A stretch of 64,000 bases of DNA from Deltaproteobacteria bacterium (lineage in GTDB: Bacteria > Desulfobacterota > Desulfobulbia > Desulfobulbales > Desulfurivibrionaceae): the NCBI GenBank assembly GCA_026388695.1, contig JAPLJH010000063.1, positions 12,205 through 76,204 of the forward strand. Reading direction: 5' to 3'. Below, piece after piece: positions 4,567-29,674 of the stretch (the first letter of the stretch is position 1; each line of letters opens with the position of its first letter). Below the pieces are notes generated by a model. The model ran no database searches, was not told where the DNA came from, and saw only the letters and a list, made by a program, of their open reading frames with translations. A program made the translations under genes and the position numbers.

Positions 4567-4754
4567 TGTTCATTTCTTTGCTTGCCCAAAGAAACGAACC
4601 AAAAGAAAAGGCACCCTGTGTCCCTTGTCCCGCCGGAGGCGGGATGCCCTGCGCTCCTCGATGCTGCCGGGGCTTTGCAAACTCGGCTGCGCCTCAAACA
4701 GTGCAAATTCCCTTTTCGGCAGCCTCTCCGGTGCTCGGCTGCGTGCCAATGGGA
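4567..4754. repeat. Structured ~185-bp dispersed element, copy A
   Basis: Close reverse-complement match to 29490-29674; three hairpins; abuts the fdhF stop codon. Confidence 0.9.
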
Positions 4755-4756
4755 TT

Positions 4757-6793
4757 TTAACTGCTCATTTTTTCCACCCGTACCGCGCAGACCTTGTACT
4801 CCGGGCAACCAGAGCCGGTGTCGAAGGCGTCGTTGGTGAGCCGATTGATGGGCGCTTCGTGGAAGTGAAAGGTGGTGTAGACCATGCCGGGTTCCACCTG
4901 ATCGGTGATGGAGGCGGCCAGGGTTATCTGACCCCGGCGGGAGGCCAGTTGCACCGACTCGCCCTGGCGCAGGCCATGGGCCTTGGCGTCTTCCGGGTTT
5001 ATCTGGAGCACCGCATGGTTGCATTCCCTGTTCAGCCGTTCGCTTTTGCGGGTCATGGTGCCGGTGTGGTAGTGGTGGTAAATTCGGCCGGTCATCAGCA
5101 GCAGCGGATACTCCGCGTCGGGCAGCTCGCCGGGTGGGGTGTGGCTGGCTGGCATAAAGTGGCCCCGTCCACGGGTAAAGTAATACTTGTGCAGGAACGG
5201 TGTGCCTGGGTGGCTTCGGTCCCAGCAGGGCCATTGCAATCCCCAGCTCTGGTCCAACCGGTCGTGGTGCATGCCGCCGTAAATGGGGGAGAGCAGGGCG
5301 ATCTCCTCCATTACCTCGGCGCTGGAGTCGTATTCCATGGCATAGCCCAAGCGGCTGGAAAGCTCCATGATGATCTCGCTGTCGGTGCGGCACTCGCCCG
5401 GCGGGGCCACGGCCTGGCGCACCATCTGCACCCGGCGTTCGGAGTTGGTAAAGCTGCCGCTCTTTTCAGCAAAGCAGGCAGCCGGGAAGACCACCTGGGC
5501 AAGCTGCGCCGTCTCGGTGAGGAAGATATCGCTCACCGCCAGGAAATCCAGGCCGCGTAGGGTTTCCTCCACCTTGCTCAAGGTGGGGTCGCTGAGCATG
5601 GGGTTTTCGCCCATGATGTACATCCCTCGAATTGGGCCTTGCTTGCCGCCGTGGGTCATCTCCACCAGGGTTTTTCCTGGGGCCTCCGGCAGACTTGCGC
5701 CCCAGGCCCGCTCGAATTTGTCCCGGTAATCTTGATTGGCCACCGCCTGGTAGCTGGGCAGCATGTTGGGCAGCGCCCCCATGTCGCAGGCACCCTGCAC
5801 GTTGTTTTGGCCCCGGAGCGGATCGACCCCGGTGTCCTCTTTTTCGATATGCCCTGCCAGCATGGCCAGGTTGGCGATGGTCTGTACGTTTTCGGTGCCG
5901 CAGACATGCTGGGTCACGCCTAGACAGTAGCAGATCACTGCTTTGCGGGCTCGGCCATAGAGTTGCGCTGCCTGGCTGATCAGGGGCAGGGGCACACCGG
6001 TGAGGGCGGCGGTTTCTTCCAGATCAAGGCGGTTGAGCATGTCGCGCAGGGCCAGGAAGTTTTCGGTGCGCATCTCGATGAATAGCTCGTCGGCCAGGCC
6101 CTCATCCAGCAGCACCCGCATCATGGCATTGAGCAGGGGGATGTCGGTGCCGGGCCGCAGGGCCAGGTGGAGATGGCTGCACTCGGCCAACCGGGTGCGG
6201 CGCGGGTCGATGACGATCAGTCTGGCGCCCCGATCCACCGCGTCCAGCATCCGGCGGGCCACCTGGGGATGGGCCTCGGTGGTGTTGGAGCCGGAAACCA
6301 GGATTACCTCAGCGTTTTCGATTTCGTTGATGGAGTTGGTCATGGCCCCGCTGCCGAAGGTGGTGGCAAGACCTGCCACCGTGGGAGCGTGTCAGAGCCG
6401 GGCGCAGTGGTCCACGTTGTTGGTGGCAAGCGCGGTGCGGGCGAACTTTTGCAGCAGGTAATTTTCTTCGTTGGTGCATTTGGCCGAGGCCAGCACGCCG
6501 ATGGCTTTGCCGCCATGGTTTTCGCGGATGTGGCCAAGCTGCTGGGCGGTGAAATCCAGGGCCTCCCCCCAGGTTGCCGGGACAAGGGCGTCGCCTTTGC
6601 GGATGAGCGGGGTGGTGAGCCGGTCAGGATGGTTGATCGATTCGTGGATGTGCCAGCCCTTAACGCAGAGATTATCCCGGGAGACCGGATGGTGTCGGCT
6701 GGGCTGGCTGCCGCAGACTTGGCCATCCTCCACATGCAGGTAGAGACCGCAACCGCAACCGCAGTAAACACAGGTGGTCAGCACATCTTGCAT
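4757..6793 (-). CDS. fdhF: Formate dehydrogenase alpha subunit, selenocysteine-containing, cytoplasmic
   Basis: TTCVYCGCGC..LCVKG; DHCARL-TGA-HAPTVAGL (TGA at 6394-6392) joins ORFs 6392..6793 and 4757..6379 in one frame; LRGQNNVQG; PEYKVCAV; no Tat signal. Confidence 0.95.
6362..6380 (-). promoter_or_regulatory. SECIS hairpin for fdhF
   Basis: GGTGGCA-GGTCT-TGCCACC stem-loop starting 11 nt after the UGA, like the E. coli fdhF SECIS upper stem. Confidence 0.88.
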
Positions 6794-6914
6794 ACCGTTT
6801 CTCCTGTTTGGATCAGGCCGGGGTACGGATTAGTCCGGACAGCCTGCATCAATTGTAGCAGAGAAACAGCGGGGGAACCAAAGGGATAATGTTTGGAACC
6901 TGATTCGGAAGGGC

Positions 6915-7436
6915 TTATTGGTGCTCGTCTGGGTTGTCGTCGTGACGCCGTTTAAAAGGCAGATGCGGAGGATGCACATGCACCCCTTCGCGTAGCATGA
7001 GGAAGCTGGTTTCGAGAAGCTCGACCCCGGTCAGCACCCCGACCGTCAGCACGGCCAGAACCACGCCGGCATGCTCATAGCCCAGGCCGACGGCCGAGCC
7101 GATGGCCGCCAGAATCCAGATCACCGCTGCGGAGGTAACCCCTTGCAGCAACCCCTCTTTGGCCATGATCACGCCCGCGCCGAGGAAGCCGATACCGGTG
7201 ACCACCTGGCCTACCACCCGGCTGGGATCAGCGCCTGTGCCCTCGGTGATCAAAGCGCCCAGGGCGACAAAGACCTCGGTGCCGAGGCAGATCAGGATGC
7301 TGGTGCGGATACCCGCCGGTTTGCCGCGCAACTGGCGCTCCAGGCCGATGATGCCGCCACAGATAAGGGCAACGGCGATGCGCTGCCAGAAGATCGGGGT
7401 GTAGGGGTCGAATACGGGCATGGGTAAAGGCTCCAT
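6915..7436 (-). CDS. MgtC/SapB family membrane protein
   Basis: GGIIGLER..KPAGIRT, DPSRVVGQVVTGIGFLGAG. Confidence 0.9.
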   Translation of the reverse strand: MEPLPMPVFDPYTPIFWQRIAVALICGGIIGLERQLRGKPAGIRTSILICLGTEVFVALGALITEGTGADPSRVVGQVVTGIGFLGAGVIMAKEGLLQGVTSAAVIWILAAIGSAVGLGYEHAGVVLAVLTVGVLTGVELLETSFLMLREGVHVHPPHLPFKRRHDDNPDEHQ

Positions 7437-7574
7437 TGGGTGTATGGTGCTGCTGAGGGTTTCCCGTTGGGAGGAAGTTTGTTAGAGTTTACGTCAATCA
7501 TGCAATAACGTCCTCTTTTTTTTTGAGAATGGTATAATCGTTTTTTACAAATCCCCAACACAAGGAGAGCCAAG

Positions 7575-8078
7575 ATGAAACGTTTTCTCATTGCCGCAGC
7601 TATAGTCGCGGTCTCTTTTAGCACCCCGGCACTCGCCACCGATGTTGGCGTTTCGGTAAGCATCGGTCAGCCCGGTTTCTATGGCCACATTGATATCGGC
7701 GACTTTCCCCAACCCCGAGTGATCTATTCTAAACCGAGAGTCATTCTGCGTGGGGTGTCTATGCACCGACCGCCCATTTATCTGCGCGTGCCGCCTGGTC
7801 ATATCAAACATTGGGATAAGCATTGTCGCGAGTACAACGCCTGCGGCGAACGGGTCTTCTTTGTCCACGACGACTGGTACGAGCGCGAGTACGTTCCGTA
7901 TTATCAGGAAAGGCATCGTGATCGCCAGGATGACCGCCGAGAGTATCGTCATGATGATCGGCAAGATGACCGTCGAGATGATCGTAGGGATGATGATCGC
8001 CGTGACGAGGGCCGGGACGATGACCGCGGCAACGGCAAAGGCAAAGGGCACAACAAAGGCCACGGCCATAATCGTTAA
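7575..8078 (+). CDS. Secreted hypothetical protein with low-complexity DDRR tail
   Basis: AGGAG RBS, signal peptide, DVGVSVSIGQPGFYG, PIYLRVPPGH; DDR(R/Q) repeats. Confidence 0.75.
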   Translation: MKRFLIAAAIVAVSFSTPALATDVGVSVSIGQPGFYGHIDIGDFPQPRVIYSKPRVILRGVSMHRPPIYLRVPPGHIKHWDKHCREYNACGERVFFVHDDWYEREYVPYYQERHRDRQDDRREYRHDDRQDDRRDDRRDDDRRDEGRDDDRGNGKGKGHNKGHGHNR

Positions 8079-8162
8079 CTCTTGGCGTAATCCCTTTATC
8101 TGTTGATATCTTTACTTCTCTCTTGATGCGGCCTTGAGCGGGGAATTCACGAAGCCGCCATA

Positions 8163-9413
8163 ATGGAATGCCAAGTGAGTTCGCCCGCTGCAAGCGCCCA
8201 GCCGCCCGCTGAAAAAACCGCCTTTATCATCCTGATCATCATCAGTGTCTGCCATCTGCTCAACGACATGATGCAGACCCTGTTGTCCGCGATCTATCCG
8301 CTGCTCCAGAGCAACTATGGCTTGAGCTTTGCCCAGATCGGCATGATCACTCTCACCTTTCAGGGCACAGCCTCGATCCTCCAGCCCATGGTCGGTTTTT
8401 TCATCGACCGCAACCCCAGGCCCTATTCCCTGGCCGTGGGCATGGGCCTTACCCTCGCGGGGCTGGTGCTGTTTTCCCAGGCCGGGAGTTATCCGGTGCT
8501 CTTGCTGGCCGCTGCCCTGGTGGGGACCGGCTCGTCGGTGTTCCATCCCGAATCCTCCCGGGTGGCGCGGATGGCTTCAGGCGGCAGGCACGGCTTGGCC
8601 CAGTCGTTGTTTCAGGTGGGGGGCAATGCCGGGTCGGCCATCGGCCCCTTGTTGGCCGCGCTCATCGTTTTGCGCCACGGGCAAACAAGCCTGGCCTGGT
8701 TTTCCCTCGCCGCCCTGCTGGGCATCTATCTCCTGATCCGGGTCGGCCACTGGTACAAGGGGCACGGGCTGATGCGGCTCATGTCCCGCGCTGGCACCGC
8801 CATGCCGCAGATGGAGCTGCCCCGCGGCAGGGTGGCCCTTACCCTGGCGGTGCTGCTGGCCCTGATGTTCTCCAAGTTTTTCTACATGGCCAGCATCTCC
8901 AGCTACTACATCTTTTATCTGATGGGCAGGTTCCAACTTCCGGTGCAGAGCGCACAGCTGTACCTCTTTGTCTTCTTCGGCGCGGTGGCGACCGGCACCC
9001 TGGTGGGCGGTCCGATTGGCGACCGCTTTGGCCGCAAGGTGGTGATCTGGGTGTCGATTCTGGGGGTGCTGCCCTTTACCCTGGCCCTGCCTTATGCCAA
9101 CCTGTTCTGGACCGGGGTGCTCAGCGTGTTCATCGGGGTGATCCTTGCCTCCGCCTTCCCGGCCATAGTGGTCTATGCCCAGGAGCTGCTTCCGGCCAGG
9201 GTCGGCATGGTGGCCGGGATGTCGTTTGGTTTTGCCTTCGGCATGGGAGGGATCGGCGCTGCGGTGCTCGGGCACCTTGCCGATGCAACCAGCCTTGGAT
9301 ACGTGTATCACCTCTGCTCGTATCTGCCAGCTATCGGGTTGTTGGCTATTTTTCTGCCGCCGTTGGAGACGGAAACCAGGCAGCGGAGGAGATTGGCTAG
9401 TGGTGGGGCGTAG
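8163..9413 (+). CDS. fsr: MFS transporter, fosmidomycin-resistance (Fsr) family
   Basis: HLLNDMMQ, SSVFHPESSRVARMASGGRHGLAQSLFQVGGN, GDRFGRK. Confidence 0.85.
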   Translation: MECQVSSPAASAQPPAEKTAFIILIIISVCHLLNDMMQTLLSAIYPLLQSNYGLSFAQIGMITLTFQGTASILQPMVGFFIDRNPRPYSLAVGMGLTLAGLVLFSQAGSYPVLLLAAALVGTGSSVFHPESSRVARMASGGRHGLAQSLFQVGGNAGSAIGPLLAALIVLRHGQTSLAWFSLAALLGIYLLIRVGHWYKGHGLMRLMSRAGTAMPQMELPRGRVALTLAVLLALMFSKFFYMASISSYYIFYLMGRFQLPVQSAQLYLFVFFGAVATGTLVGGPIGDRFGRKVVIWVSILGVLPFTLALPYANLFWTGVLSVFIGVILASAFPAIVVYAQELLPARVGMVAGMSFGFAFGMGGIGAAVLGHLADATSLGYVYHLCSYLPAIGLLAIFLPPLETETRQRRRLASGGA

Positions 9414-9481
9414 TGATTATTGCGGGGTGAGGGGGGTGGTTTACTGAGAGGGCTTGACCGCTTTTGGGGAACGTTGTTAGT

Positions 9482-10180
9482 TTATTGAATTTTTGCGCTT
9501 TTCTTCAGGTTGTGGCGCGCGCATAATAGCTGAATATTCTCGGCTTTTAACGATGTTCCGCCTTTAGAAAACGGAACAATATGATCAAAATGCAGTTCAT
9601 CGGTAGCGCCACAAGTTATACAGCGACCGCCATCACGCGCCCAGACTTCCAGCTTCACGTTTGTTGGAATAATCCGACTCCGTTCTACCAATCGATCGCG
9701 TAAATCTTCTGCTAACGATTCATCCTCGACGTCTTCGATAGCTGCTAATTTGAACTTGAAAACGTTTCGATTTCCATCGTGCTCTGTCCATGAGTCAACA
9801 AGGTGAAAATAGCCGTTATCTGACCAAATCCCGGCCTTGATTTTTTCATAGACCCGGACAATATCAGGACCTTTCTTGCCGGTTTTAAAATCTTGTGCTG
9901 CTTTATGAAATTTCCCGTTTTCTGTTAATGCTCCATTCCCACGGCCTTCGGGTTGATCTAGTAACTTTGGGTTGGCAACGTTCTTTGTCCTTGGCTCATC
10001 GTGACCTTCATAGATCAGTACAGCTCCATCTTCCTTTATTTCATCCTTGTAAGGAGCATTTGGCCGGACCGACATGAGGATTATTGAATGTTTACCTTTC
10101 AGCCTAAAATTCATCCCTTTCTGCAAACTTGTGCCTTCCTTCTGGCACATTTCTATATAGGAAATGATGTTGCCTCTCAT
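9482..10180 (-). CDS. HNH endonuclease with N-terminal SRA-like domain (putative modification-dependent restriction enzyme)
   Basis: C-terminal RDGGRCITCG..HFDHIVPFSKGG..NIQLLCARHN; N-terminal PYKD..LIYEG pattern; lower GC than flanks. Confidence 0.75.
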   Translation of the reverse strand: MRGNIISYIEMCQKEGTSLQKGMNFRLKGKHSIILMSVRPNAPYKDEIKEDGAVLIYEGHDEPRTKNVANPKLLDQPEGRGNGALTENGKFHKAAQDFKTGKKGPDIVRVYEKIKAGIWSDNGYFHLVDSWTEHDGNRNVFKFKLAAIEDVEDESLAEDLRDRLVERSRIIPTNVKLEVWARDGGRCITCGATDELHFDHIVPFSKGGTSLKAENIQLLCARHNLKKSAKIQ

Positions 10181-10212
10181 GCGCTTTTTTTCCTAACCCC
10201 CTTTGGGGGTGG

Positions 10213-11415
10213 TTATTGATGCTTTCCGCAGTGATTACAGTGCTTGCCAAAGACAAACGTCGGCTTATCGCAACTGCCGCAAGGCTTATACTGAATAAAT
10301 CCGCAAAAAGAACAGGCCTGTGATCCCTTGGGGAGTAACTTTCCGCACTGTTGGCATTGGCCTTTCATAATTCGTCGTTCCATCAGCTTTTCCCGCGAAA
10401 AAATCTTCCGCTGAAAGACATAGATGCAAAAAAGCGCCGCAGCGATTGCGAGGGCGATCACCAGATAATGCCATATGGCGATGAGTTTGAGTGACTCCAG
10501 CAGCTCGATAAGGTTTTGCAGCAGTTTTTTGGGCAGGATGTCGTAGATGGTTTCGATGATTTTGAAAAAGATAGGAATGAACGCAACAACCAGCAGGTGG
10601 GCGGAGACCAGGGTCTGGATGCCTCGGCTTTTTCTGACGCTGGCGCTGTTCCAAACGTAGAAGATTGCGAAGAGCGGCAGGAGAAAGAGTATCTGCATCC
10701 CCAGTTTTTTCAGGGGATACCAAAAGTATGCATTCTGGAGATCGGCCCGCAACTGTGCGCGGGCAGCTTGTTGTTGCGTTTCCAATTTTTCCCAAAGCAG
10801 ACGCACGGTGGGATTGTTGTTGATCTCCAGCTCCAATGCCGCGATCTGGCCGCGCAGGGTGTTCAGGGATTCGGTTTTCGCCTGGAGGTCTTTTTGTATC
10901 CGGTCAACATTGGCCTGGCCCTCCTCCTGTTTGGCAATGGTCTCCAAGAGGGAGGTGTCGTAGGCCCCTTTTTCCGTATTGATCTGGCGCTGAAGCTCTT
11001 GGGCCTCGCGGTTGAATTTCTTGCGTTCTTCAAAGACAGCGGCCAGCTCCTTGTTGTTCTTGAGCTTGTCGAAGAGATCAAGGTAGGGAGCGCAGGTTGG
11101 ATGCCATTTTCTCTTTGTTTCCGCAGGCTGATAATAGCTGTTGTTGTACGAGATGATGAGGTTGGAGAGGTTCTCGGTCCGGCTGGTGGGATTCCATTCC
11201 TGGTTTATGACAACCTCGCGGCAGAAAGAGGGGATGGAATCGTCAGGGGAGGCGAGCTGCCTGGTATGTTGCTCCATACCGGTAAAGATGGAGGTGAGGA
11301 TAAAGAAGTCGAGAAACAGGATGATGACCAGCGCCGCTTTGCTGATCGGCTGATTATCAAGGCTCGTGAGGTTGCCCTTGATCTTGAAAAACCCATCCTT
11401 TACTCGTGCAAGCAT
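10213..11415 (-). CDS. Membrane protein with periplasmic coiled coil and C-terminal double zinc ribbon
   Basis: TM segments, coiled-coil region, four CxxC pairs at the C-terminus. Confidence 0.7.
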   Translation of the reverse strand: MLARVKDGFFKIKGNLTSLDNQPISKAALVIILFLDFFILTSIFTGMEQHTRQLASPDDSIPSFCREVVINQEWNPTSRTENLSNLIISYNNSYYQPAETKRKWHPTCAPYLDLFDKLKNNKELAAVFEERKKFNREAQELQRQINTEKGAYDTSLLETIAKQEEGQANVDRIQKDLQAKTESLNTLRGQIAALELEINNNPTVRLLWEKLETQQQAARAQLRADLQNAYFWYPLKKLGMQILFLLPLFAIFYVWNSASVRKSRGIQTLVSAHLLVVAFIPIFFKIIETIYDILPKKLLQNLIELLESLKLIAIWHYLVIALAIAAALFCIYVFQRKIFSREKLMERRIMKGQCQQCGKLLPKGSQACSFCGFIQYKPCGSCDKPTFVFGKHCNHCGKHQ

Positions 11416-11438
11416 TCTTTACCCCCCCCCCGGTGTAT

Positions 11439-11603
11439 TTACACTGATCCCTGTCTTGGTTCGCCATTGGCCTTGGCTACGTTGCCTTGGGCCAGAAGAA
11501 AGGTCTCCCTGTCTCCTTCTGCAAGGGCGGCATTCAGGTATGCCGCCTCCGAATTTTTCAAGGCTTCAATCAGGTCTTCCTGGTATTCAGTTTCTTGTGT
11601 CAT
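11439..11603 (-). pseudogene. Truncated addiction-module antidote (HTH antitoxin) remnant
   Basis: YQEDLIEALKN..AAYLNAALAEGDRETFLLA.GNVAKANG resembles the antidote N-terminus but ends before the HTH; no toxin adjacent. Confidence 0.55.
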
Positions 11604-11616
11604 GCAAGCCTTCTCA

Positions 11617-21963: not shown

Positions 21964-23295
21964 ATGTCCCAGCGTCTCTATATTGAAACCTTTGGCTGCC
22001 AGATGAATGAGCGTGATTCCGAAATCATGGCCCAGCTTCTTGGCGAGCATTCCTATATCCAGACCGATCAGCCCGAACAGGCCGATGTGGTTGTGGTCAA
22101 CACCTGCAGTATCCGTGGCAAAGCCGCGCATAAGGCGTACAGCTGCTTTGGCCGGTACAAGAAGTTGAAGGCGAGGCACCACGATTTCATCTTGGCCGTG
22201 ACCGGGTGTGTGGCCCAGCAGGATGGTGCGGCCTTGCTGGAGCGGATGCCCTATATCGATATCGTCATGGGGCCGCAGTCGATCTACGCCCTGCCCTCCC
22301 TGGTGGCAGCATTCCGCCGGGATAGAAAACCCCTGGTGGCCACGGAGCTTTCCGCCGATTTCGTTATCCCCCCTTTTTTGCCCAACCTGGCGGAAGGCCC
22401 TTCGCATAAACGGTTTATTACCATCATGCAAGGGTGCGATAATTTCTGTACCTACTGCGTGGTGCCCTATACCCGGGGCCGCGAGATAAGCAGGAGTTTT
22501 GGCGATATTCTGGCCGAGGCAACCCATCTTGTGGGCCAGGGGGTTAAGGAGATCACCCTCATCGGGCAGAATGTCAATTCTTACGGCCAAAAAGGTTGCG
22601 ACACCAAGCAGAGCCAGGGTTTTCCCGAACTTCTCCGTGCAGTGGCCGCTATTGACGGCTTACAGCGGCTGCGTTTCACCTCTTCCCATCCCAAGGATCT
22701 TTCCGAAGAGCTGATGCGTTGTTTTGCCGAGATTCCCGTGCTCTGCCCGCACTTTCATCTTCCGGTTCAGTCCGGCTCAAACAGTATCCTGCAACGCATG
22801 AACCGCAAGTACACCATCGAAGCCTATCTCGAAAAGGCAGCCAGACTGCGGGAATACCGACCGGATATAGCTCTGACCACCGATATCATCGTTGGTTTTC
22901 CTGGCGAAACAGACGATGATTTTGCCGCCACCATGCAGGTGATGGAGACGGTGCAATACCACGGCTCCTATTCCTTCAAGTATTCCGATCGGCCCAACGC
23001 CAAGGCCGCTGATTTTCCCGACAAGGTCGCGGAAGCGGTCAAGACCGAGCGGCTGGCCCAATTGCAGGCGCGGCAGGAGGAGATTGCCCTTGTGCTCAAG
23101 CAGGCGGAGATTGGTAAAACTGTGGAAGTCATGGTGGAAGGGGCAAGCAAGTCTCCAGCCAATCAATGGAGCGGCCGAACCGGTGGTAATCAGATCGTGA
23201 ATTTTTCTTGCGAAGCCAAACTGGTTCCCGGTCAGTTGCTCATGGTCGAGATTGAGGGTGCTTGCCAGAACTCCTTACGGGGGAAAATGATCTAG
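21964..23295 (+). CDS. miaB: tRNA-2-methylthio-N6-dimethylallyladenosine synthase
   Basis: TFGCQMN, NTCSIR, GCDNFCTYC, C-terminal TRAM-like domain. Confidence 0.97.
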   Translation: MSQRLYIETFGCQMNERDSEIMAQLLGEHSYIQTDQPEQADVVVVNTCSIRGKAAHKAYSCFGRYKKLKARHHDFILAVTGCVAQQDGAALLERMPYIDIVMGPQSIYALPSLVAAFRRDRKPLVATELSADFVIPPFLPNLAEGPSHKRFITIMQGCDNFCTYCVVPYTRGREISRSFGDILAEATHLVGQGVKEITLIGQNVNSYGQKGCDTKQSQGFPELLRAVAAIDGLQRLRFTSSHPKDLSEELMRCFAEIPVLCPHFHLPVQSGSNSILQRMNRKYTIEAYLEKAARLREYRPDIALTTDIIVGFPGETDDDFAATMQVMETVQYHGSYSFKYSDRPNAKAADFPDKVAEAVKTERLAQLQARQEEIALVLKQAEIGKTVEVMVEGASKSPANQWSGRTGGNQIVNFSCEAKLVPGQLLMVEIEGACQNSLRGKMI

Positions 23296-23386
23296 CCTGA
23301 AAAAGCCAGGACATCTGGCTTTGGTTGTGTGCTATGATGACGATAAATTCAGTATCCTGTTTTTGTGTTTTGCAAGGAAACCCAAC

Positions 23387-24169
23387 TTGATCAAAAAGAA
23401 GCTGCAAGCTGTACAAAAACGTCTCGAAGCGTCGCTTGAAGAAATTAGAGCTTCGCATTCTCACAGAGGCAATCGGGGGTCGGTTGCAGAGGTAGTGGTT
23501 CGTGCGTTCTTGCGAGAATATTTACCTCCAGATAATCGAGTTGGTGAAGGTGAGATAATCGACTCGAAAGAGCACATATCCACACAACTAGATATTGTTA
23601 TAACCAACCCTAATCATCCCTATATTAATGATCTCAAGGAACCAGGATTATTTTTAATTGAAGGTGTTGCGGCAGCAGGAGAGGTAAAAACAAACCTCAA
23701 CAGCAAAGATATTGACACTCTTATTCAGAGCTGCATTTCTTATAAGAATCTGCAAATAATCCACCAAGCCGGTACGCAAATATATTCCAACGACTCGGAT
23801 ATAAAACGGTTCATCGATCACCGACCATATTTTGTATTTGCTTTTGAATCACAAATCACCATCGAAACGATTCACTCGAAGCTTGACGACTACTATGCGG
23901 AGAATAATACCCCAGTAGAAAATCAGATTGATGCTGTTTTTTGTCTTGATCGAGGCGCGATAATCAATTTTGGTGACGGACAGGGGGCGCTTAAATGGTC
24001 AAAGCCAAACCAGAGCAGCGTTCCAGGCATCCACATAGTGGAATTTGGGCCAGACAATGTATTACTGAGCCTCTTGTCATGGTTAAGCATATCCATACAA
24101 CGTATTACTCTGTTTCACTCACCTTTGGTTGATTACCTGATTAGCAAAAAGCCAGTTGCAGAATGTTAG
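23387..24169 (+). CDS. DUF6602-like PD-(D/E)xK-fold protein
   Basis: GSVAE..FLREYLP..GEIID..STQLDIVI..GEVK; AT-rich; TTG start after AAGGA. Confidence 0.65.
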   Translation: MIKKKLQAVQKRLEASLEEIRASHSHRGNRGSVAEVVVRAFLREYLPPDNRVGEGEIIDSKEHISTQLDIVITNPNHPYINDLKEPGLFLIEGVAAAGEVKTNLNSKDIDTLIQSCISYKNLQIIHQAGTQIYSNDSDIKRFIDHRPYFVFAFESQITIETIHSKLDDYYAENNTPVENQIDAVFCLDRGAIINFGDGQGALKWSKPNQSSVPGIHIVEFGPDNVLLSLLSWLSISIQRITLFHSPLVDYLISKKPVAEC

Positions 24170-24190
24170 CCCTAAAAATGGAGACCTCCC

Positions 24191-24841
24191 ATGATCGACC
24201 TACATACCCACTCCCTGTTCAGCGACGGTGAACTTGTTCCGGCCGAGCATCTGCGCCGAGTGGAAATCCTCGGTTATTCAGCCATTGCCATCACCGATCA
24301 CGCCGACTCCTCCAATCTGGATTTCATCATCCCCCGCATTGTGCAGGCGGCGGCTGATCTGAACAAGTACTCCAAAACCCAGCTTCTGCCCGGCATCGAA
24401 CTGACCCATGTGCCGCTGGAGCAGATTGCCGAACTCACCCGCAGGGCACGGCAGCTTGGGGCCAAGATCGTGGTCGGCCACGGGGAAACCCCGGTTGAGC
24501 CGGTGCGGCCTGGAACCAATCGGGCCACCCTTGAGGCGGGCGTGGATATCCTGGCTCACCCCGGTTTCATTACCCTTGAAGAGGCCAAACTTGCCGCGGA
24601 CAAGGGCATCCTCCTTGAGCTGTCCGGCCGTAGGGGGCACTCGCTCACCAATGGGCATGTGGCTAAGATGGCTCTGGCCGCAGGCGCTGGATTGGCGGTG
24701 AACGCCGACGCCCATGGTCCTGGCGACTTTCTCACCGCAAAAATGGCGGAGATGGTGGCCCTCGGCGCCGGACTCTCCCTCGAGGAGTATGCCAAAATCC
24801 GCAAAGCCATGGCGGCGCTGGTTGCGAAGGTTACAGCCTGA
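24191..24841 (+). CDS. PHP-domain (histidinol-phosphatase-like) protein
   Basis: DLHTHS..SDG, ITDHAD, AHPG, DAH. Confidence 0.88.
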   Translation: MIDLHTHSLFSDGELVPAEHLRRVEILGYSAIAITDHADSSNLDFIIPRIVQAAADLNKYSKTQLLPGIELTHVPLEQIAELTRRARQLGAKIVVGHGETPVEPVRPGTNRATLEAGVDILAHPGFITLEEAKLAADKGILLELSGRRGHSLTNGHVAKMALAAGAGLAVNADAHGPGDFLTAKMAEMVALGAGLSLEEYAKIRKAMAALVAKVTA

Positions 24842-24882
24842 TTTTTCCCGGAATTACTCTAACAAAGGGGCTAGAAAATTAT

Positions 24883-25767
24883 ATGCCAGTAGAGACTTTT
24901 GCCGAAGGCCAGGAATACAGCAATGCATCTGAGTATCTTGTGTTCACTTCCGCCAATCAGAAATTTGGCTTGAGGCAGGAGGTTCTGGTTGCGATCATCG
25001 ACATGCCCAACCACACCCTGATTCCGCGCATGCCTTCTCATATGCGGGGCGTCATAGATTATATGGGCCAGGCTGTGCCTGTGTACGATATCCGGAAGAA
25101 AATGGGGCTTCCTCCTCTGGCAGAGGAGACCAACCTCCTGATCGACTCTCTTGTCCAGCGCAAGCAAGACCATCTTTCCTGGCTGGAAAAACTGAAGGAT
25201 CAGGTTGCCCACAGCCAGGAAATCTCGGTACAGACAGACCCCCATAAATGCGCCTTTGGTCTCTGGTATGACGCCTGCAAGTTTCACAGTTATAACATAA
25301 CCGACTACATGGCTAACTTTGACGCCCCGCACAAAAGGATTCATTCCCTGGCCATTGAGGTGAGTATCCTTATCCAGGCCGGAAAACTTGAAGCAGCAAA
25401 AGATGTTATTCATCAAGCGGAAAATGATGAGCTGCAAACTCTGCTCATCTTGTTTGATGGGGCAGCCAAGAAGATAAAGCAATTCACCTACGAATATGCG
25501 GTTATTTTAGAACGTGCCAGTGGTCAGCGTGTTTCTATCCTTGCCGATAACCTCGAATACTTCGGCCTGCTTGACGAGGTTGTCTCTCCCCTGCCAATCG
25601 CCTTTGCCCAACAGCACAATAATTTCATAGACGCTTTGGGACGGAAAACCAAGGGGGATGGCAAGGAAGAGATTCTTATCCTGAACATCGAAAAATTCCT
25701 GCTTGATGAAACGGGCAACCCACCGTCGCCATTGTCGGATGGGCCTGAAATCTCACCTGCTTCCTGA
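24883..25767 (+). CDS. CheW-like protein with an inserted CZB zinc-binding domain
   Basis: CheW-like GVIDYMG..PVYDIR; DHLSW..DPHKCAFGLWY..HKRIH. Confidence 0.75.
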   Translation: MPVETFAEGQEYSNASEYLVFTSANQKFGLRQEVLVAIIDMPNHTLIPRMPSHMRGVIDYMGQAVPVYDIRKKMGLPPLAEETNLLIDSLVQRKQDHLSWLEKLKDQVAHSQEISVQTDPHKCAFGLWYDACKFHSYNITDYMANFDAPHKRIHSLAIEVSILIQAGKLEAAKDVIHQAENDELQTLLILFDGAAKKIKQFTYEYAVILERASGQRVSILADNLEYFGLLDEVVSPLPIAFAQQHNNFIDALGRKTKGDGKEEILILNIEKFLLDETGNPPSPLSDGPEISPAS

Positions 25768-25777
25768 AGATTTGGGG

Positions 25778-26566
25778 ATGGGGAAATCCCATCATTTTTC
25801 TTGGTATCCTGGGGATAATCATTTGGAAGCCTTCCTTGACGTCACCATCCTCCCGCAGCCCGACCTCACCACCTGCGGCCCGACCTGTCTCCATGCCGTG
25901 TACCAATACTACGGCGACGACATCCCACTGACTCAAGTGATCGACGAGGTGAAAAGCCTGGAAACCGGCGGTACCCTGGATGTCTTCCTCGCCTGCCACG
26001 CCCTGCAGCGCGGTTACAAGGCACGAATCTACACCTACAACCTCCAGGTTTTCGACCCCACCTGGTTTCTTCATGGCCCGGAGTATATCGAGGAACGGCT
26101 CTTGGCCCAGATGGAGGTCAAGGACGATGCAAAACTCCACCTTGCCACCCGGGGCTACCTCAACTTTCTCAACCTTGGCGGGGAACTGCGTTTCGCCGAT
26201 CTCACCCCTTCCCTGCTCCGCAAATATCTGAAACGCTCCATCCCGGTGCTCACCGGCCTAAGTTCCACCTATCTCTACCGGAGCATGCGGGAATACGGCG
26301 ATCTCTGCGAGGATGACGATGTGCGCGGCCATGTCTCCGGCCATTTTGTTCTGCTCTGCGGCTACAACCGGCCCGACCGGCTGGTGGCCATCGCCGATCC
26401 GCACATGGATAACCCCATGGCCGACGGCCAGAAATACGAGGTCTCCATTGACCGGGTTATCTGTTCCATCCTGCTGGGCATCGTGACCTACGACGCCAAT
26501 CTGCTGATCATCGAGCCGGGTAGGAAAAATGGGAATGGCCGGGCGAATCAGGCGGTGAGTGCATGA
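25778..26566 (+). CDS. Peptidase C39-like (papain-fold) protein
   Basis: QPDLTTCGPTCL, GHFVLLCGY, IADP (Gln/Cys/His/Asp catalytic set); start uncertain. Confidence 0.8.
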   Translation: MGKSHHFSWYPGDNHLEAFLDVTILPQPDLTTCGPTCLHAVYQYYGDDIPLTQVIDEVKSLETGGTLDVFLACHALQRGYKARIYTYNLQVFDPTWFLHGPEYIEERLLAQMEVKDDAKLHLATRGYLNFLNLGGELRFADLTPSLLRKYLKRSIPVLTGLSSTYLYRSMREYGDLCEDDDVRGHVSGHFVLLCGYNRPDRLVAIADPHMDNPMADGQKYEVSIDRVICSILLGIVTYDANLLIIEPGRKNGNGRANQAVSA

Positions 26567-28044
26567 AGGTTTTGATCGTCGTCAACGACCCCAAGGACTG
26601 GCCCCTGGCCATCAGCGACGTGGAGATCGTCCCGGCCCGCGCCTACCTTACCGATGCCGCCTATGCGGAGATGACCTCGGCCAGGGTGTTCAACCTGTGC
26701 AAATCCTATCGCTACCAGAGCACTGGCTATTATGTTTCGCTGCTGGCCGCAGCCCGCGGGCACAAGCCTTTGCCGGATGTGGCCACTATCCAGGATTTCA
26801 AGACCCAGGCCATTATCCGCATCGCCTCCGACGATCTGGACCAGATCATCCAGCAGAGCTTGGGCCAGATTAAATCGTCGGAGTTTGTGGTGAGCATCTA
26901 TTTTGGCCATAATGTGGCCAAGAGGCACGAAAAGCTTGCCCAACAGTTGTTCAAGATATTTCAGGCCCCTTTTCTGCGCGCCAGCTTCAGCCATAATGAC
27001 AAAGAGGGGAAATGGCAGTTGGCTGGGATCACCCCCATTGCGGCCAGCGATATTCCCGAGGACCACCGCGATTTTGCGGTGGATATGGCCCGTGAATATT
27101 TCAAGGGCCGACATCGCATCTTTCATCGGCGGCGCACCGCGCGCTATGATCTGGCCATTCTTCACGACCCGGCCGAGGCGGAAGCACCCTCCAATGCCAA
27201 GGCCTTGCAGCGCATGGTCAAGGCGGCGGAGGCTGTGGGCTTTGCCACGGAGTTCATTCAAAAAGATGATTACGGCAGGCTTGCTGAGTTTGACGCCTTG
27301 TTTATCCGAGAAACCACCAGCGTTCTCCACCACACCTACCGTTTCGCCCGCAGAGCCGCGGCTGAAGGGTTGGTGGTGATCGATGACCCTGAATCGATTT
27401 TGCGCTGCACCAACAAGGTGTTTCTGGCGGAGATTCTGACCCGACACCGGATTCCCATCCCTAAGAGCCGCATTGTCCACTCGGGGAACTGGCAGCAGCT
27501 CAGCGTGGAGTTGGGCTTCCCCTGTGTGCTCAAGCGGCCGGACAGCTCTTTTTCCCAAGGTGTGGTCAAGGTGGGAAACGAGACGGAGTTGGCCCGCGAG
27601 CTTCCGGCCCTGCTGCAGAAATCAGAGCTGGTCATTGCCCAGGAGTTCATGCCCACCACCTATGATTGGCGGGTCGGCATTTTTGATGGGCAGCCGCTCT
27701 TTGTCTGCAAATATTTCATGGCCCCGAAGCATTGGCAGATCATCAAGCGCGACCAGGATGGGCGTAAGCTCACCGATGGCGAGGCAGAAACCCTGCCGGT
27801 GGAGCATTGTCCCCCTGGCCTGATCAAGCTGGCGCTCAAGGCCTCGGCCCTCATCGGCGACGGCCTCTACGGGGTGGATATCAAACAGGTCGGCAAGCGT
27901 TTCTATCTCATCGAGATCAACGACAACCCTAATATCGATGCGGGGGTGGAAGACAAGGTGTTGAAGGACGAGCTGTACCTGCGCCTGATGCGGGTCTTCG
28001 CCCGCAGGGTGGACGAGCGTAAGGGCGGTGGGTTGTGGGCGTGA
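26563..28044 (+). CDS. RimK-like ATP-grasp ligase with N-terminal RLAN domain
   Basis: NLCKSYRYQSTGYYVSLLAAARGH; FIRETT, PCVLK.PDSSFS.GV, QEF, YGVDIK, EINDNP. Confidence 0.9.
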   Translation: MKVLIVVNDPKDWPLAISDVEIVPARAYLTDAAYAEMTSARVFNLCKSYRYQSTGYYVSLLAAARGHKPLPDVATIQDFKTQAIIRIASDDLDQIIQQSLGQIKSSEFVVSIYFGHNVAKRHEKLAQQLFKIFQAPFLRASFSHNDKEGKWQLAGITPIAASDIPEDHRDFAVDMAREYFKGRHRIFHRRRTARYDLAILHDPAEAEAPSNAKALQRMVKAAEAVGFATEFIQKDDYGRLAEFDALFIRETTSVLHHTYRFARRAAAEGLVVIDDPESILRCTNKVFLAEILTRHRIPIPKSRIVHSGNWQQLSVELGFPCVLKRPDSSFSQGVVKVGNETELARELPALLQKSELVIAQEFMPTTYDWRVGIFDGQPLFVCKYFMAPKHWQIIKRDQDGRKLTDGEAETLPVEHCPPGLIKLALKASALIGDGLYGVDIKQVGKRFYLIEINDNPNIDAGVEDKVLKDELYLRLMRVFARRVDERKGGGLWA

Positions 28045-29279
28045 GTCAGGACGGATTGTTCCAGAAGTTTGGCATTGAGCTGGAATACATGCTGGTCCGC
28101 GAGGACACCCTGGATGTGGCGCCCATTGCCGACCGAATTTTGGAACAGGCTGCGGGGCGAATCACCAACGAGGTGGAACGGGGAATCATGGCCTGGTCCA
28201 ATGAGCTGGCCCTGCATGTGATCGAGATCAAGAACAGCGGCCCTGTCCCTGCCCTGCCCATGCTGGCGGAAAAACTTCAGAAAGAGGTTGAGGAACTTGG
28301 TCTGGTGGCGGCGGAACAGGGGGCGATTCTCCTGCCCACTGCCATGCATCCTTGGATGGACCCCCACAGCGAAACCCGGCTCTGGCCCCACGGCAACAAG
28401 GACATCTACAACACCTACAACCGGATCTTCAACTGCCAGGGCCATGGTTGGGCCAACGTGCAGTCCACCCATCTCAATCTTGGTTTTGCCACGGATGAAG
28501 AGTTTGGCCGCTTGCACGCAGCGATTCGGGTGCTATTGCCTATTCTCCCGGCCATAGCCGCCAGCTCGCCTGCGGCGGATGGCGCGCTCACCGGCTGGCT
28601 GGATACCCGGCTGAACTATTACCAGAATAACCAGAAGCGGATTCCTTTCATCACCGGTCAGATCATCCCGGAGCCGGTATTTAGCGAGGCCGAGTACGAG
28701 CAGGAAATCTACCAGCGTCTGCGCCGCGACATCGCGCCCTTTGATCCGGACGGGGTGTTGGAGGCGGAATGGCTCAACTCCCGTGGGGCCATTGCCCGGT
28801 TTGACCGCAATGCCATCGAGATTCGGGTGCTGGACATCCAGGAATGCCCGTTGGCTGATGTTTCCTTGGCTGTGCTGATCTGTGCGGTATTGAAAGGTCT
28901 GACTGCTGGGCGTTGGGCCGGGTTGGTCGAGCAGAAGGCGGCGAATACCGGAGAATTGGCGGAGATTTTTGTTGGTGCGGTCCGGGACGGCGAGGAGGCG
29001 GTGATCGATAACCATCGCTACCTTGCTCTGTTTGGCAGAGGGGTAAAGGCAGCGATGACTGCAGGCGAGCTCTGGCAGGAGCTCGCTGCGGACTGCGGCC
29101 CGGAGCTGGCCGAGGCCGGACACGGCATCCAGCAGACCGTGAGCGCCATCCTCGCGCAAGGGCCGTTGTCTCGGCGGATTATTCGGGCGCTTGGCGACAA
29201 GCCCGGTCGGGAGCGGTTTCGGGAGGTGTATCGGGAGTTGGGCCGATGTCTGGCCCAAGGGCGGCTCTTTTTGCCATAG
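28041..29279 (+). CDS. Glutamate-cysteine ligase family 2 (carboxylate-amine ligase)
   Basis: FGIELEYM, SNELALHVIE, AMHPWM, NSRGAIARF.RNAIEIRVLD; GTG overlaps the upstream TGA. Confidence 0.88.
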   Translation: MSQDGLFQKFGIELEYMLVREDTLDVAPIADRILEQAAGRITNEVERGIMAWSNELALHVIEIKNSGPVPALPMLAEKLQKEVEELGLVAAEQGAILLPTAMHPWMDPHSETRLWPHGNKDIYNTYNRIFNCQGHGWANVQSTHLNLGFATDEEFGRLHAAIRVLLPILPAIAASSPAADGALTGWLDTRLNYYQNNQKRIPFITGQIIPEPVFSEAEYEQEIYQRLRRDIAPFDPDGVLEAEWLNSRGAIARFDRNAIEIRVLDIQECPLADVSLAVLICAVLKGLTAGRWAGLVEQKAANTGELAEIFVGAVRDGEEAVIDNHRYLALFGRGVKAAMTAGELWQELAADCGPELAEAGHGIQQTVSAILAQGPLSRRIIRALGDKPGRERFREVYRELGRCLAQGRLFLP

Positions 29280-29297
29280 TTAGGATGTTGTTGTTTT

Positions 29298-29477
29298 CTT
29301 TCTTCTTTTGCGTGCCCAAAAGAAGAAACAAGAAAAAGGCACCCCAGCCAGTCCTGGCCCTGCGGGCTTCCCTTACTTCTCGACGAGGGCGGGACGCGGA
29401 AAAACTCGGGCTTCGCCCTCAAACAGTTCCCGCGTCTTTTCCGTCCTCGCCTGCGAGGCGCGGCAGGACAAATGGGG
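29298..29477. repeat. Structured ~185-bp element, divergent copy C (same orientation as copy A)
   Basis: Same hairpin order and conserved linkers (AAAGGCACCC; AACTCG..CTCAAACAG; AATGGG) with different stem sequences. Confidence 0.8.
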
Positions 29478-29489
29478 GAGGAAGAAGAT

Positions 29490-29674
29490 TCCCATTGGCA
29501 CGCCGCCGAGCACCGGAGAGGCTGCCGAAAAGGGGATTTGCACTGTCTGAGCGCAGCGAGTTTGCAAAACCCCGGCAGCATCGAGGAGCACAGGGCATCC
29601 CGCCAACGGCGGGACAAGAGACACAGGGAGCCCTTTCTTTGGTTCGTTTCTTTGGGCAAGCAAAGAAATGAACA
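29490..29674. repeat. Structured ~185-bp element, copy B (inverted relative to A and C)
   Basis: Reverse complement of 4567-4754 with few differences. Confidence 0.9.

Follow-up and report, generated by a model that had tools for sequence, protein, structure and literature searches.

What are the three similar, strongly folded copies in this window (the whole stretch of 64,000 nucleotides analysed here), and does selection act on them as DNA, as RNA or not at all? The earlier note had placed copy A at 4567-4754 (plus strand), copy B at 29490-29674 (minus strand) and copy C at 29298-29477 (plus strand), and these positions were borne out (Table 1). As described there, A and B are nearly identical (93%), and C is divergent with the same architecture: BLAST barely links it to A, and the structure model recovers it with 131 bits. 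The quoted details are all present, namely hairpins with differing loops on preserved stems, the long stem that is rewritten yet retains its TTTT bulge, AACTCG/CTCAAACAG and the opposite-strand GC-GCA-GC. B and C both exist but are not independent, forming one inverted doublet. The three copies are members of a large, widespread, uncatalogued and mobile-looking family of bacterial repeats of ~190 nt.

Table 1. Positions of the repeat copies, their structural parts and related sites in the window.
Feature	Position	Strand	Remarks
Left outer inverted-repeat arm of the "extended A" unit	4517-4563	+	TGCTGATAATCAAGTAATCT...; right arm missing in copy A
Copy A	4564-4759	+	full module, A-type, lone; covariance model R1 188 bits, full length; nhmmer 220 bits; neighbours asrA-like and fdhF-like genes, both minus strand
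Hairpin P0	4568-4599	+	GTTCATTTCTTTG / CAAAGAAACGAAC; duplex of the proposed triple helix
P0 loop	4581-4586	+	includes TGCC 4583-4586, one pseudoknot strand
A-rich linker	4600-4609	+	proposed third triplex strand
GGCA	4610-4613	+	pairs with the P0 loop
Closing helix P1	4614-4616 / 4751-4753	+	CCC / GGG
Hairpin P2	4628-4644	+	TCCCGCC-GGA-GGCGGGA
Long irregular rod P3-P7	4646-4739	+	TTTT bulge; conserved internal loop AAACUCG / CUCARACAGU; terminal hairpin (loop 4688-4690)
Whole C/B doublet	29280-29680		inserted DNA between GCS2-like and comEA-like genes
Copy C	29294-29483	+	C-type, left half of inverted doublet; R1 131 bits, full length
Copy C, P0	29299-29328		
Copy C, linker	29330-29337		
Copy C, GGCA	29338-29341		
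Copy B	29485-29677	-	A-type, right half of doublet; R1 181 bits
Copy B, P0	29642-29673		
Empty site	58523-58553	-	relative G012 has an A/C doublet exactly there
Unit termini			TCTGATTRCCAAG...

The earlier description of a three-copy element holds for the window only; the source genome (2.6 Mb) carries 46 modules at 33 intergenic loci, a copy number that had been overlooked. The repeat occurs in 24 of the 24 sampled species of the genus; of 16 other families in the order, 4 have it. Carriers include Desulfurivibrio/Desulfurivibrionaceae, Hydrosulfovibrio, Desulfobulbaceae, Desulfocapsaceae, Desulfococcaceae and Desulfobacteraceae MAGs and two gammaproteobacterial genomes (Pseudomonadales NAT4, 95 bits, and Ketobacter, 91 bits, by the structure model). 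An evenly drawn sample of the phylum contained 10 positive genomes out of 150; the repeat was found in 4/4 of one family, and a genus of the same family is without it. No Rfam family matches the repeat, and RF01731 gave no match to any member even at E ≤ 1 (E ≤ 10 for copy A). The source genome holds two subfamilies, A-type and C-type. All 13 C-type modules are paired with an inverted A-type module, and this recurrent doublet architecture, with members 4-14 nt apart, makes up 14 of the 33 loci. Deletion variants and nested mini-insertions are found among the copies, and orthologous copies are 92-99% identical compared with 82-92% for their flanks in seven of nine pairs.

The proposal that the fold is conserved by covariation was upheld on an alignment of 78 distinct sequences, far beyond chance. 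Compensatory changes on both sides occur in 45 of 56 pairs, and 87.6% of cells are paired compared with 70.6% after shuffling (none of 500 shuffles reached the observed value). When the partners were slid by 1-3 columns as a control, pairing fell to 37-52%. Both-side changes affect 10 of 12 pairs in P0 (93.8% of cells paired), 7 of 7 in P2 (92%) and 10 of 12 in P5. Support for P1 is moderate (72% of cells paired), with CCC/GGG replaced by GCC/GGC in other families. Pair 4656/4731 (X93-Y168), which lies outside the model, is C-G in 28, G-C in 23 and U-A in 16 cases. These data support a non-coding repeat family selected for its single-strand fold, in line with the earlier idea of a functional nucleic acid selected on structure.

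A pseudoknot and a putative triple helix had gone unnoticed. The pseudoknot between GGCA and the P0 loop is 92.4% paired and co-varies though absent from the model (variants TGTCC/GGACA, CGGGC/GCCCG and TGCA/TGCA). Read in parallel, the linker is complementary to the P0 5′ strand, and it mirrors the P0 purine strand with a matching G position. This G position co-varies, with 16 and 10 distinct combinations in two registers (0 of 2000 permutations), and contiguous triplex layers average 6.4, compared with 4.2 for a reversed linker (0 of 2000 permutations). P0, the A-rich linker and the GGCA pseudoknot thus show three-way covariation, as a triple helix of ~7 layers would require; the pseudoknot with this covariation is new here.

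The strand that folds is most likely the one complementary to copy A as written; the earlier note had probably read the repeat in the opposite orientation. This choice is suggested by the loops, the P0 wobbles and the knot topology. On the complement, the terminal loops of P7 are GAA (22), GCA (11), GTA (1) or GNRA. P0 has 22 A.C cells versus 4-5 G.U cells on the written strand, so its wobbles lie on the complement. By established pseudoknot geometry, the third strand of an H-type knot crosses the deep groove of the duplex only on the complement strand. Against this, P2 favours the written strand; over the whole fold, the number of G.U cells (171) is close to that of A.C cells (144), and folding-energy z-scores favoured neither strand.

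Several observations support the claim that the repeat behaves as a non-autonomous mobile element: its presence or absence at orthologous sites, the inverted repeats at its bounds, the occurrence of variants with deletions, and a phylogenetic distribution that is patchy. From one species to another, a unit with its bounding inverted repeats is either there or cleanly missing. At one site (C91), the unit TCTGATTGCC...GTAATCAGA, whose limits are the extended-A left arm and its partner arm, is present in G000, G008, G023 and G022. The aligned site is cleanly empty in G015 and G002, split matches with gaps of 8-31 nt indicate emptiness in G020, G005, G007, G012 and G016, and other variants fill it in G010, G006 and G019. 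The left arm beside copy A is subfamily-specific and, within the genome, conserved in 10 lone modules. The gap between the GCS2-like and comEA-like genes holds the C/B doublet also in G020 and G004; G012 has a relic there, and in seven other species the gap is filled with unrelated sequence. In G009 it is only 7 nt long. Conversely, sites that are empty in the source genome carry the repeat in relatives.

Lone modules are strongly biased with respect to replication. Their written orientation lies on the G-rich strand in 17 of 19 cases in the source genome (p = 7e-4), in 9 of 11-12 in the near-complete relative G012, whose skew forms two contiguous domains, and in 51 of 61 when 8-kb loci from many genomes are taken together (p = 1e-7). 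The G-rich strand is the leading strand as a general rule, which was applied rather than mapped in these genomes; in G012, dnaA and the skew switch are 400 kb apart. Doublets are unbiased (13 of 23), and each necessarily puts one folding strand on the lagging-strand template.

We see an about even chance that this is a non-autonomous, mobile-looking repeat, moved in trans, whose fold acts as an RNA with a triplex-knot 3′ cap. The mobile units measure 250-500 bp, have subfamily-specific inverted repeats at their bounds and hold either one module of ~190 nt or an inverted pair of an A-type and a C-type module. The fold is a three-way junction of a long irregular rod with a GNA/GNRA cap, a short GC hairpin and a 3′-terminal H-type pseudoknot, in which a U-rich loop would occupy the major groove of a 12-13-bp A/U-rich stem in about seven U.A-U or C+.G-C layers. 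Our best guess is that the fold works as RNA, arising from read-through or weak promoters, and we infer this rather than ssDNA. The triplex knot may then cap the 3′ end, as do triple helices of the ENE/MALAT1 type and the 3′ pseudoknot of extended TwoAYGGAY, and a separate enzyme would move the units in trans. Copies with the folding strand as lagging-strand template are rare, which may reflect fork stalling and subsequent deletion, or fork-tied insertion. Telomerase RNA, SAM-II/preQ1-II, PAN ENE and MALAT1 place a U-rich strand in the A-U major groove, with U.A-U and C+.G-C layers. The modelled knot shares their H-type topology with loop 1 as third strand, and its position at the presumed RNA 3′ end would, by analogy, fit a protective cap; those RNAs are single-copy functional RNAs or viral or eukaryotic elements, whereas the knot here is predicted in a repeat of dozens of copies. 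The favoured strand, read as RNA, implies transcription head-on to replication, and putative RNA 5′ ends in doublets are merely 4-14 nt apart. The search for partner genes yielded neither a candidate nor a mobilising enzyme: there is no TnpB and no association with Y1/HUH genes, and no reverse transcriptase was found in three carriers searched.

A tentative second reading, possible but in our view doubtful, is that the element works as ssDNA at the fork or in a transposition intermediate, as the substrate of a strand-specific ssDNA enzyme or as a cis-acting replication signal, with RNA irrelevant. The bias of lone copies lends indirect support to the earlier claim of an ssDNA role and is not explained by gene orientation, since the two strands carry long ORFs in a ratio of 47:53. 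Neither strand of the window copies and their immediate surroundings has a sigma-70-like promoter or an intrinsic terminator, and module orientation bears no relation to flanking genes. The near-equality of G.U and A.C cells points the same way, as do the GNA mini-hairpins, whose stability in DNA is exceptional; besides such hairpins, DNA also forms Y.R-Y or R.R-Y triplexes. The blocks of the written strand moreover follow the Y-R-R order of BoxC/TMECO, which folds into an intrastrand DNA triplex in vitro (PMC4666352). However, the strand with the GNA/GNRA loops, P0 wobbles and triplex knot, the putative folding strand, is in 84% of lone copies not the one that the lagging-strand template exposes. 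An eight-helix three-way junction with conserved junction nucleotides and a pseudoknot also far exceeds attC sites, IS608 ends and ssi sites, and units bounded by inverted repeats are unlike ssDNA transposons.

It is quite unlikely that the repeat is REPIN/PATE-like and moved by an HUH/Y1 transposase (RAYT or IS200/IS605 TnpA) that acts in trans from another place in the genome. The source genome does encode two Y1 genes, an IS200-like TnpA and a RAYT-like Y1 protein, and Y1 genes occur in 37 of 41 genomes searched. IS200/IS605 elements are known for a replication-strand bias, reportedly described by Ton-Hoang et al. in 2010, and the repeat shares with REP/BIME and REPIN-RAYT systems its high extragenic copy number, hairpin potential, non-autonomous spread and inverted doublets. 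Yet genomes that lack the repeat have Y1 genes just as often as carriers do. Two carriers, G007 (95% complete) and G009 (85% complete), yielded none, and matches in G019 and G021 are weak only. No modules flank the two resident Y1 genes, and the end hairpins of the IS200-like copy are unrelated to the module. The suggestion of an HUH/Y1 nuclease substrate is not supported. Modules of ~190 nt also contrast with REPs of 20-40 nt, doublet arms are two diverged subfamilies instead of near-identical REPs, and the units have terminal inverted repeats, which IS200/IS605 lack. Finally, if the folding strand, with its special loops and knot, is the active one, the bias is opposite to that predicted by the IS608 (IS200/IS605) rule.

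Similarly improbable is an ordinary DDE-type MITE with a chance palindromic interior and a functionless fold, its covariation a by-product of few master copies: terminal inverted repeats around cleanly present or absent units, deletion variants, nested mini-insertions and equal G.U and A.C counts (suggestive of neutral decay of single copies) would fit, but the compensatory changes extend across families, orders and two phyla, and inverted-repeat symmetry cannot produce three- or four-state pairs (C-G/G-C/U-A) or pseudoknot and triplex covariation because the helices sit inside one arm, while no related autonomous element or transposase lies beside ~220 copies, the outer repeats occur only adjoining modules, no target-site duplication was definable at the filled and empty sites compared, and a DDE mechanism does not predict the replication-strand bias.

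Among published systems, extended TwoAYGGAY repeats and the intrastrand-triplex repeats BoxC/TMECO come closest. Extended TwoAYGGAY of Pseudomonadota (Rfam RF01731 core; extension in bioRxiv 10.64898/2026.09.22.753630) likewise comprises multicopy intergenic structured elements of ~200 nt, in tens to hundreds of copies with large strain differences, several hairpins, a 3′ pseudoknot, flanking repeats and a suspected mobile-element-like expansion. Its doublets are enriched and divergent in RNA orientation, as the A/C doublets would be if the complement is the RNA strand. In contrast, our repeat has no AYGGAY loops and no RF01731 match, a three-way junction that carries one long rod plus a GC hairpin, and a doublet spacing of 4-14 nt rather than a median of 249 bp; the text of that preprint does not contain "triplex", "triple helix" or "replication". 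Of the intrastrand triplex repeats (PIT elements, BoxC and TMECO; Hoyne et al. 2000; Holder et al. 2015, PMC4666352), TMECO was studied as DNA and without covariation analysis; its strand split is 13 plus to 10 minus, and the text of the TMECO paper does not mention lagging-strand placement. TMECO is a stand-alone, GC-rich motif of ~40 nt (CCCTCNCCC...), whereas the putative triplex here is A/T-rich, pseudoknot-locked and one end of a 190-nt fold. Both are dispersed intergenic repeats with three consecutive pyrimidine-purine-purine blocks in mirror symmetry, at loci prone to small deletions and rearrangement, and in both the inverted pairs always join two different subtypes (type A with type B in TMECO), a likeness that again favours the ssDNA reading (PMC4666352).

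The placement of copies A, B and C in the window, proposed in the earlier note, was confirmed, but the description of the element as three-copy was not: BLAST and nhmmer searches of the assembly (2.58 Mb, 87% complete) recovered 46 modules at 33 intergenic loci. They form one family with two diverged subfamilies of ~190-nt modules, designated A-type (33 modules) and C-type (13 modules). Copies A and B are 93% identical, and copy C represents the diverged subfamily. The family makes up ~0.3% of the 2.6-Mb genome and breaks assemblies, and its modules lie immediately next to the start and stop codons of genes of core metabolism. Scans of the copies in the window revealed neither a promoter nor a terminator consensus. 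The fdhF-like ORF next to copy A (window 4757-6379, minus strand) starts at position 96 of the molybdopterin-domain profile; the N-terminal part is probably encoded ahead of an in-frame stop, possibly a selenocysteine TGA.

Locations, neighbours and characteristic sequences of the element and of the sites discussed in the text (G000, this genome; other G numbers, genomes of relatives; L numbers, individual loci)
Feature	Location	Strand	Description
Copy A	window 4564-4759	+	
Copy A neighbour	window, start at 4504	-	asrA-like 4Fe-4S protein gene
Copy A neighbour	window, stop at 4757	-	fdhF-like molybdopterin oxidoreductase gene
Copy C	window 29294-29483	+	inverted doublet with copy B
Copy B	window 29485-29677	-	inverted doublet with copy C
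C + B doublet			gap between convergent GCS2-like and comEA-like genes
Empty site	window 58523-58553	-	
C91 site	G000 C91:40288-40575		between ABC permease gene and its ATPase gene
Y1 genes of G000	C28:18989-20944, C46:6982-7413 (L229-L231)		RAYT-like (228 aa) and IS200-like tnpA (143 aa)
Mini-insertion	G000 C65:14237-14500, L059, L063, L065, L072 (G032)		GTTTATRCCCC-loop-GGGGT
Unit termini			TCTGATTRCCAAG and GGTTCATCCGGAAATTCCGG
P0/linker combination			TTTCTTTG / AAAGAAAG
P0/linker combination			TTCTTTTG / AAGAAAAG
P0/linker combination			TTTTCTTG / AAAAGAA
P0/linker combination			TTTTCTTC / AAAAGAAG
P0/linker combination			TTTTTCTTTG / AAAAAGAAAG

All 24 other species of the genus carry the element, mostly with at least 20 matches each, as do 4 of the 16 other families of the order. 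A pattern scan over one genome per species gave at least 114 stretches, and the carriers among the matches listed are Desulfurivibrio, Desulfurivibrionaceae MAGs, Hydrosulfovibrio ferrireducens, Desulfobulbaceae, Desulfocapsaceae, Desulfococcaceae and Desulfobacteraceae. Six matches of the scan (Acidihalobacter, Phototrophicaceae, Coriobacteriales, Nitratireductor, Lentzea and the untitled locus L199) lacked support from nhmmer; the covariance model described below found nothing in the first five, and its match in L199 was partial, being truncated where the stretch ends. Two gammaproteobacterial copies are real: that of Pseudomonadales NAT4 scores 95 bits with the covariance model and lies between pilT/pilU-like genes, and that of Ketobacter scores 91 bits and lies between two gcvP genes. 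These neighbours did not point to an autonomous copy. In a phylum survey by an even draw, 10 of 150 genomes were carriers; one family had the element in all four of its genomes, and a complete genome of another genus within the window's own family had none. This patchy distribution suggests horizontal transfer and, after it, lineage-specific expansion.

In this genome, a C-type module is always located beside an inverted A-type module at a spacing of 4-14 nt, with the AT-rich hairpins (P0) facing outward. The doublets number 14, of which 5 have internal deletions. Because some matches in other genomes cover the C half alone, lone C-types are suggested to exist there. The modules are embedded in larger, subfamily-specific units. 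A left arm, CTGATTACCAAGTAATCTCAGC..., is common to ten lone A copies, several of which also have its inverted right-hand partner; the outer arms of the doublets are GGTTCATCCGGAAATTCCGGGGAAG, and other lone copies share further extensions. No outer arm or inverted repeat was found away from modules in this genome, which speaks against the outer repeats being free-standing palindromic targets.

To describe the fold, 31 diverse copies were aligned with MAFFT, and RNAalifold showed covariation in three helices. The full structure was then annotated by hand and turned into a covariance model, with which 84 matches from 61 sources were aligned; the pairing statistics were taken over 78 distinct rows. 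The fold is kept by covariation, in agreement with the earlier note. Standard pairs occupy 87.6% of the cells compared with 70.6% after shuffling (reached in 0 of 500 trials), 45 of the 56 pairs are changed on both sides (661 cells), and partners slid by 1-3 columns pair in only 37-52%. Because the alignment had been fitted to most of the structure, two features outside the model count as independent tests. The first is the X93-Y168 pair, which is C-G in 28 cells, G-C in 23 and U-A in 16, with 3 cells unpaired. The second is a pseudoknot between the P0 loop (TGCC) and GGCA, paired in 92% of cells, with variants that include TGTCC/GGACA, CGGGC/GCCCG and TGCA/TGCA.

In the resulting model, the architecture is a three-way junction of P1, P2 and P3-P7, with P0 and the knot placed outside the junction. 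The closing helix P1 is paired in 72% of cells, which is moderate support. P2 is the GC hairpin of the junction, and P3-P7 form a long irregular rod that is interrupted by a U4 bulge and by an internal loop, AAACUCG / CUCARACAGU, whose sequence is strictly conserved. A first register of P4, from the minimum-free-energy fold, was replaced by the one in which X93 is paired to Y168. A mini-insertion of ~24 nt, which has a GNRA loop on the complement, was seen nested in the module at two different positions, one following P2 and one within P7.

P0 and GGCA are connected by an A-rich linker, which complements the 5' strand of P0 in parallel orientation and so is a mirror repeat of the purine strand in P0. 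A shift of the C-G pair in P0 is accompanied by a matching shift of the G in the linker, and the two main registers comprise 16 and 10 distinct combinations, examples of which are listed in the table. Contiguous triplex layers number 6.4 on average compared with 4.2 for the reversed linker, and when the linkers were permuted among the sequences, the observed value was reached in 0 of 2000 permutations. Watson-Crick pairing of the linker was rejected because it requires the reverse complement, which is not seen. As judged from the sequences, the covariation between linker and P0 is the signature of base triples. Such a triplex would rank among the longest that have been proposed for nucleic acids of bacteria. 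In copies from several genomes, the triplex linker contains a recurrent 16-nt insert, CAGCAGCGAAGCGGCG.

We favour the complement of copy A as the putative folding strand because of the P7 loops, the type of mismatch in P0 and the groove geometry of the pseudoknot. On the complement, the terminal loop of P7 is GAA (22 distinct rows), GCA (11), GTA (1) or a GNRA loop (GAAA, GTAA, GCAA); on the written strand (copy A as given) it is UNC, a loop for which we know of no special stability. The recurrent P0 mismatch on the written strand is A.C in 22 cells versus G.U in 4-5, which corresponds to G.U on the complement. H-type pseudoknots have loop 1 in the deep groove of stem 2, and the shallow groove of stem 1 is crossed by loop 3. 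In the modelled geometry, the third strand is loop 1 of the P0 stem on the complement only, where Hoogsteen triples (U.A-U and C+.G-C) of the kind present in telomerase RNA become possible. Reading the complement places the knot at the 3' end of the module and makes the doublets divergent. Other measures weigh against a definite choice: the counts over all cells are near equal (G.U 171 versus A.C 144), P2 favours the written strand, the folding-energy z-scores favour neither strand, and the orientation relative to neighbouring genes is unbiased (11 versus 8, by crude ORF calls).

The modules are biased with respect to the replication strand. The GC skew of this genome is strong and bimodal (~+/-0.07-0.09 per contig), and 27 of 33 A-type modules have their written orientation on the G-rich strand, namely 17 of 19 lone copies (p=7e-4) and 10 of 14 doublets. 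The skew of the relative G012 (2.8-Mb contig) forms two contiguous domains, and the same rule is followed there by 9 of 11-12 lone copies and 3 of 9 doublets. In 8-kb loci from many species, it is followed by 51 of 61 lone modules (p=1e-7), among them 18 of 23 divergent members. Because long ORFs are almost evenly divided between the strands (47:53), the orientation of modules relative to neighbouring genes is near random and copy A obeys the rule while antisense to both of its neighbours, the bias concerns replication and not the transcription of host genes. On contig C1 of G012, dnaA is ~400 kb from the nearer GC-skew switch (~627 kb versus ~1.02 Mb), which means that oriC is located away from dnaA or that the assembly contains a rearrangement.

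The G-rich strand is usually the leading strand, and by this rule the putative folding strand avoids the position of lagging-strand template. Two causes may be considered. One is retention, in which a structure-prone strand on the lagging-strand template would lead to stalling and deletion; hairpin and triplex repeats on that template are known to have both effects. Structure-provoked stalling and deletion have also been proposed for TMECO repeats (PMC4666352). The other would be an insertion step coupled to the fork. With the folding strand as the active one, the bias would have a polarity opposite to the rules of IS608 and group II introns. A broader reading, which we regard as possible but rather improbable, is that the element represents an undescribed, widespread class of bacterial elements that is spread or retained through a telomerase-like triple-helix pseudoknot at the replication fork, by a new strand-specific insertion mechanism or as a structured RNA or DNA signal interacting with the replisome.

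Dispersed repeats of bacteria are usually treated as simple palindromes. The fold described here has the elaborateness of a riboswitch or small ribozyme and is kept across Desulfobacterota into some Gammaproteobacteria, and the strand bias provides a first experimental handle on such elements. Should the structure cap the 3' end of an RNA, bacteria would have a counterpart to the ENE/MALAT1 stabilisers, and it might provide a compact stability tag for engineered transcripts. In annotation, the covariance model would label thousands of blank intergenic regions.

The element was not assigned to any named family, and its closest published descriptions are the extended TwoAYGGAY and the PIT/BoxC/TMECO repeats. 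Extended TwoAYGGAY repeats of Pseudomonadota are multicopy and have divergent doublets and a 3' pseudoknot (bioRxiv 10.64898/2026.09.22.753630). The element is likewise multicopy, with a pseudoknot and knots-outward doublets (divergent on the complement), which is taken as a resemblance only. TwoAYGGAY RNA itself (RF01731), in which two hairpins with AYGGAY loops stand on a common basal stem, is defined by these loops, whereas the element has them on neither strand. Neither this family nor any other in Rfam 15 was matched by the whole window at the gathering score, by copy A at E<=10 or by nine diverse loci at E<=1; matches at relaxed cut-offs were at chance level. A literature search with the conserved strings of the element found nothing related.

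The PIT/BoxC/TMECO intrastrand-triplex repeats consist of Y-R-R blocks and form inverted pairs in which two subtypes are combined (PMC4666352). The element shares the Y-R-R order and the two-subtype inverted pairs but differs in sequence, size and context, and its blocks TTTCTTTG / CAAAGAAA / AAAGAAA do not follow the TMECO consensus CCCTCNCCC-N3-6-GGGNGAGGG-N3-GGGNGAGGG. The ITxF classes have at least 6-8 triples from three consecutive blocks in one strand, for which the element qualifies with its mean of 6.4 layers; their connector limit is 6, whereas the second connector of the element is 6-8 nt and partly base-paired.

The element resembles MITEs in its terminal inverted repeats and small size (TCTGATTGCC...GTAATCAGA in a ~315-bp unit, another outer-repeat pair in doublets), but no parent insertion sequence with the same termini was found in this genome, where the termini occur solely beside modules. 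PATEs derived from IS200/IS605 also have a replication orientation bias, but its polarity here would be the reverse of the IS608 rule, provided that the folding strand is active. However, PATEs lack terminal inverted repeats, which the units possess, and have differing subterminal hairpins at their ends; they also coexist with TnpA and often TnpB. Membership in REPIN-RAYT systems was rejected on all points compared, because these have short REPs (20-40 nt versus ~190-nt modules), doublets of near-identical REPs (versus A- and C-type arms with ~73-79% identity in partial BLAST alignments) and a single-copy RAYT that is flanked by and co-occurs with the repeats, neither of which holds here.

An HUH/Y1 nuclease, suggested as a partner in the earlier note, was not borne out. 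Y1 genes are uncorrelated with the element, being near-ubiquitous in the order whether or not a genome carries it, and none was found in the carriers G007 and G009. The Y1 genes of this genome are on separate contigs (C28 and C46) on which no module was found, and its IS200-like tnpA copy has its own end hairpins, unrelated to the module. The RAYT-like gene adjoins a 229-aa ORF whose N-terminus resembles an IS110-type transposase by eye. A search for TnpB (PF07282) found none. Searches of G000, G015 and G021 gave no RVT_1, which makes a resident reverse transcriptase unlikely. Beside ~220 copies, there was no recurrent protein, and clustering of 1,541 flanking ORFs gave syntenic or generic families only.

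Insertions of the element are polymorphic among relatives. The GCS2/comEA gap, which holds the doublet in G000, G020 and G004, is 7 nt long in G009 and contains a relic of the C-type end in G012. In G021, G003, G024, G007 and G005 (L110-L114), it holds an unrelated ~120-nt palindromic repeat, CGACAGGCTCAGGGTGAACGG ... CCGTTCGTGCTGAGCCCTGTCG, and in G023 and G015 (L103, L104), three co-directional ORFs of 324, 261 and 263 aa over 2.7 kb. Read by eye, these ORFs appear to be an ABC-transporter operon (binding protein, ATPase and permease) with no transposase, and an autonomous copy in these fillings was rejected. Four sites that are empty in this genome are filled in relatives. At the one inside the window, G012 holds a complete A/C doublet in exactly the orthologous position, 3' of a terminator-like hairpin and 5' of a gene start.

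G000, G008, G023 and G022 carry the ~315-bp unit at the C91 site. Alignment shows that G015 and G002 lack the entire unit, and its absence from G020, G005, G007, G012 and G016 is seen as split matches with gaps of 8-31 nt. The gap in G010, G006 and G019 holds different variants of the element (orthologous loci L260-L265). Because three variants share this gap across species, a hot spot or replacement by conversion is suggested. AAGAGT is on both flanks at C91, and no consistent target-site duplication was found across four other two-ended copies or the filled/empty pairs. Of nine orthologous pairs, seven show 92-99% identity in the element and 82-92% in the flanks, which are mostly coding. Because the orthologous copy is frequently not the closest copy, gene conversion or replacement at hot sites accounts for this conservation with the same likelihood as purifying selection on resident copies.
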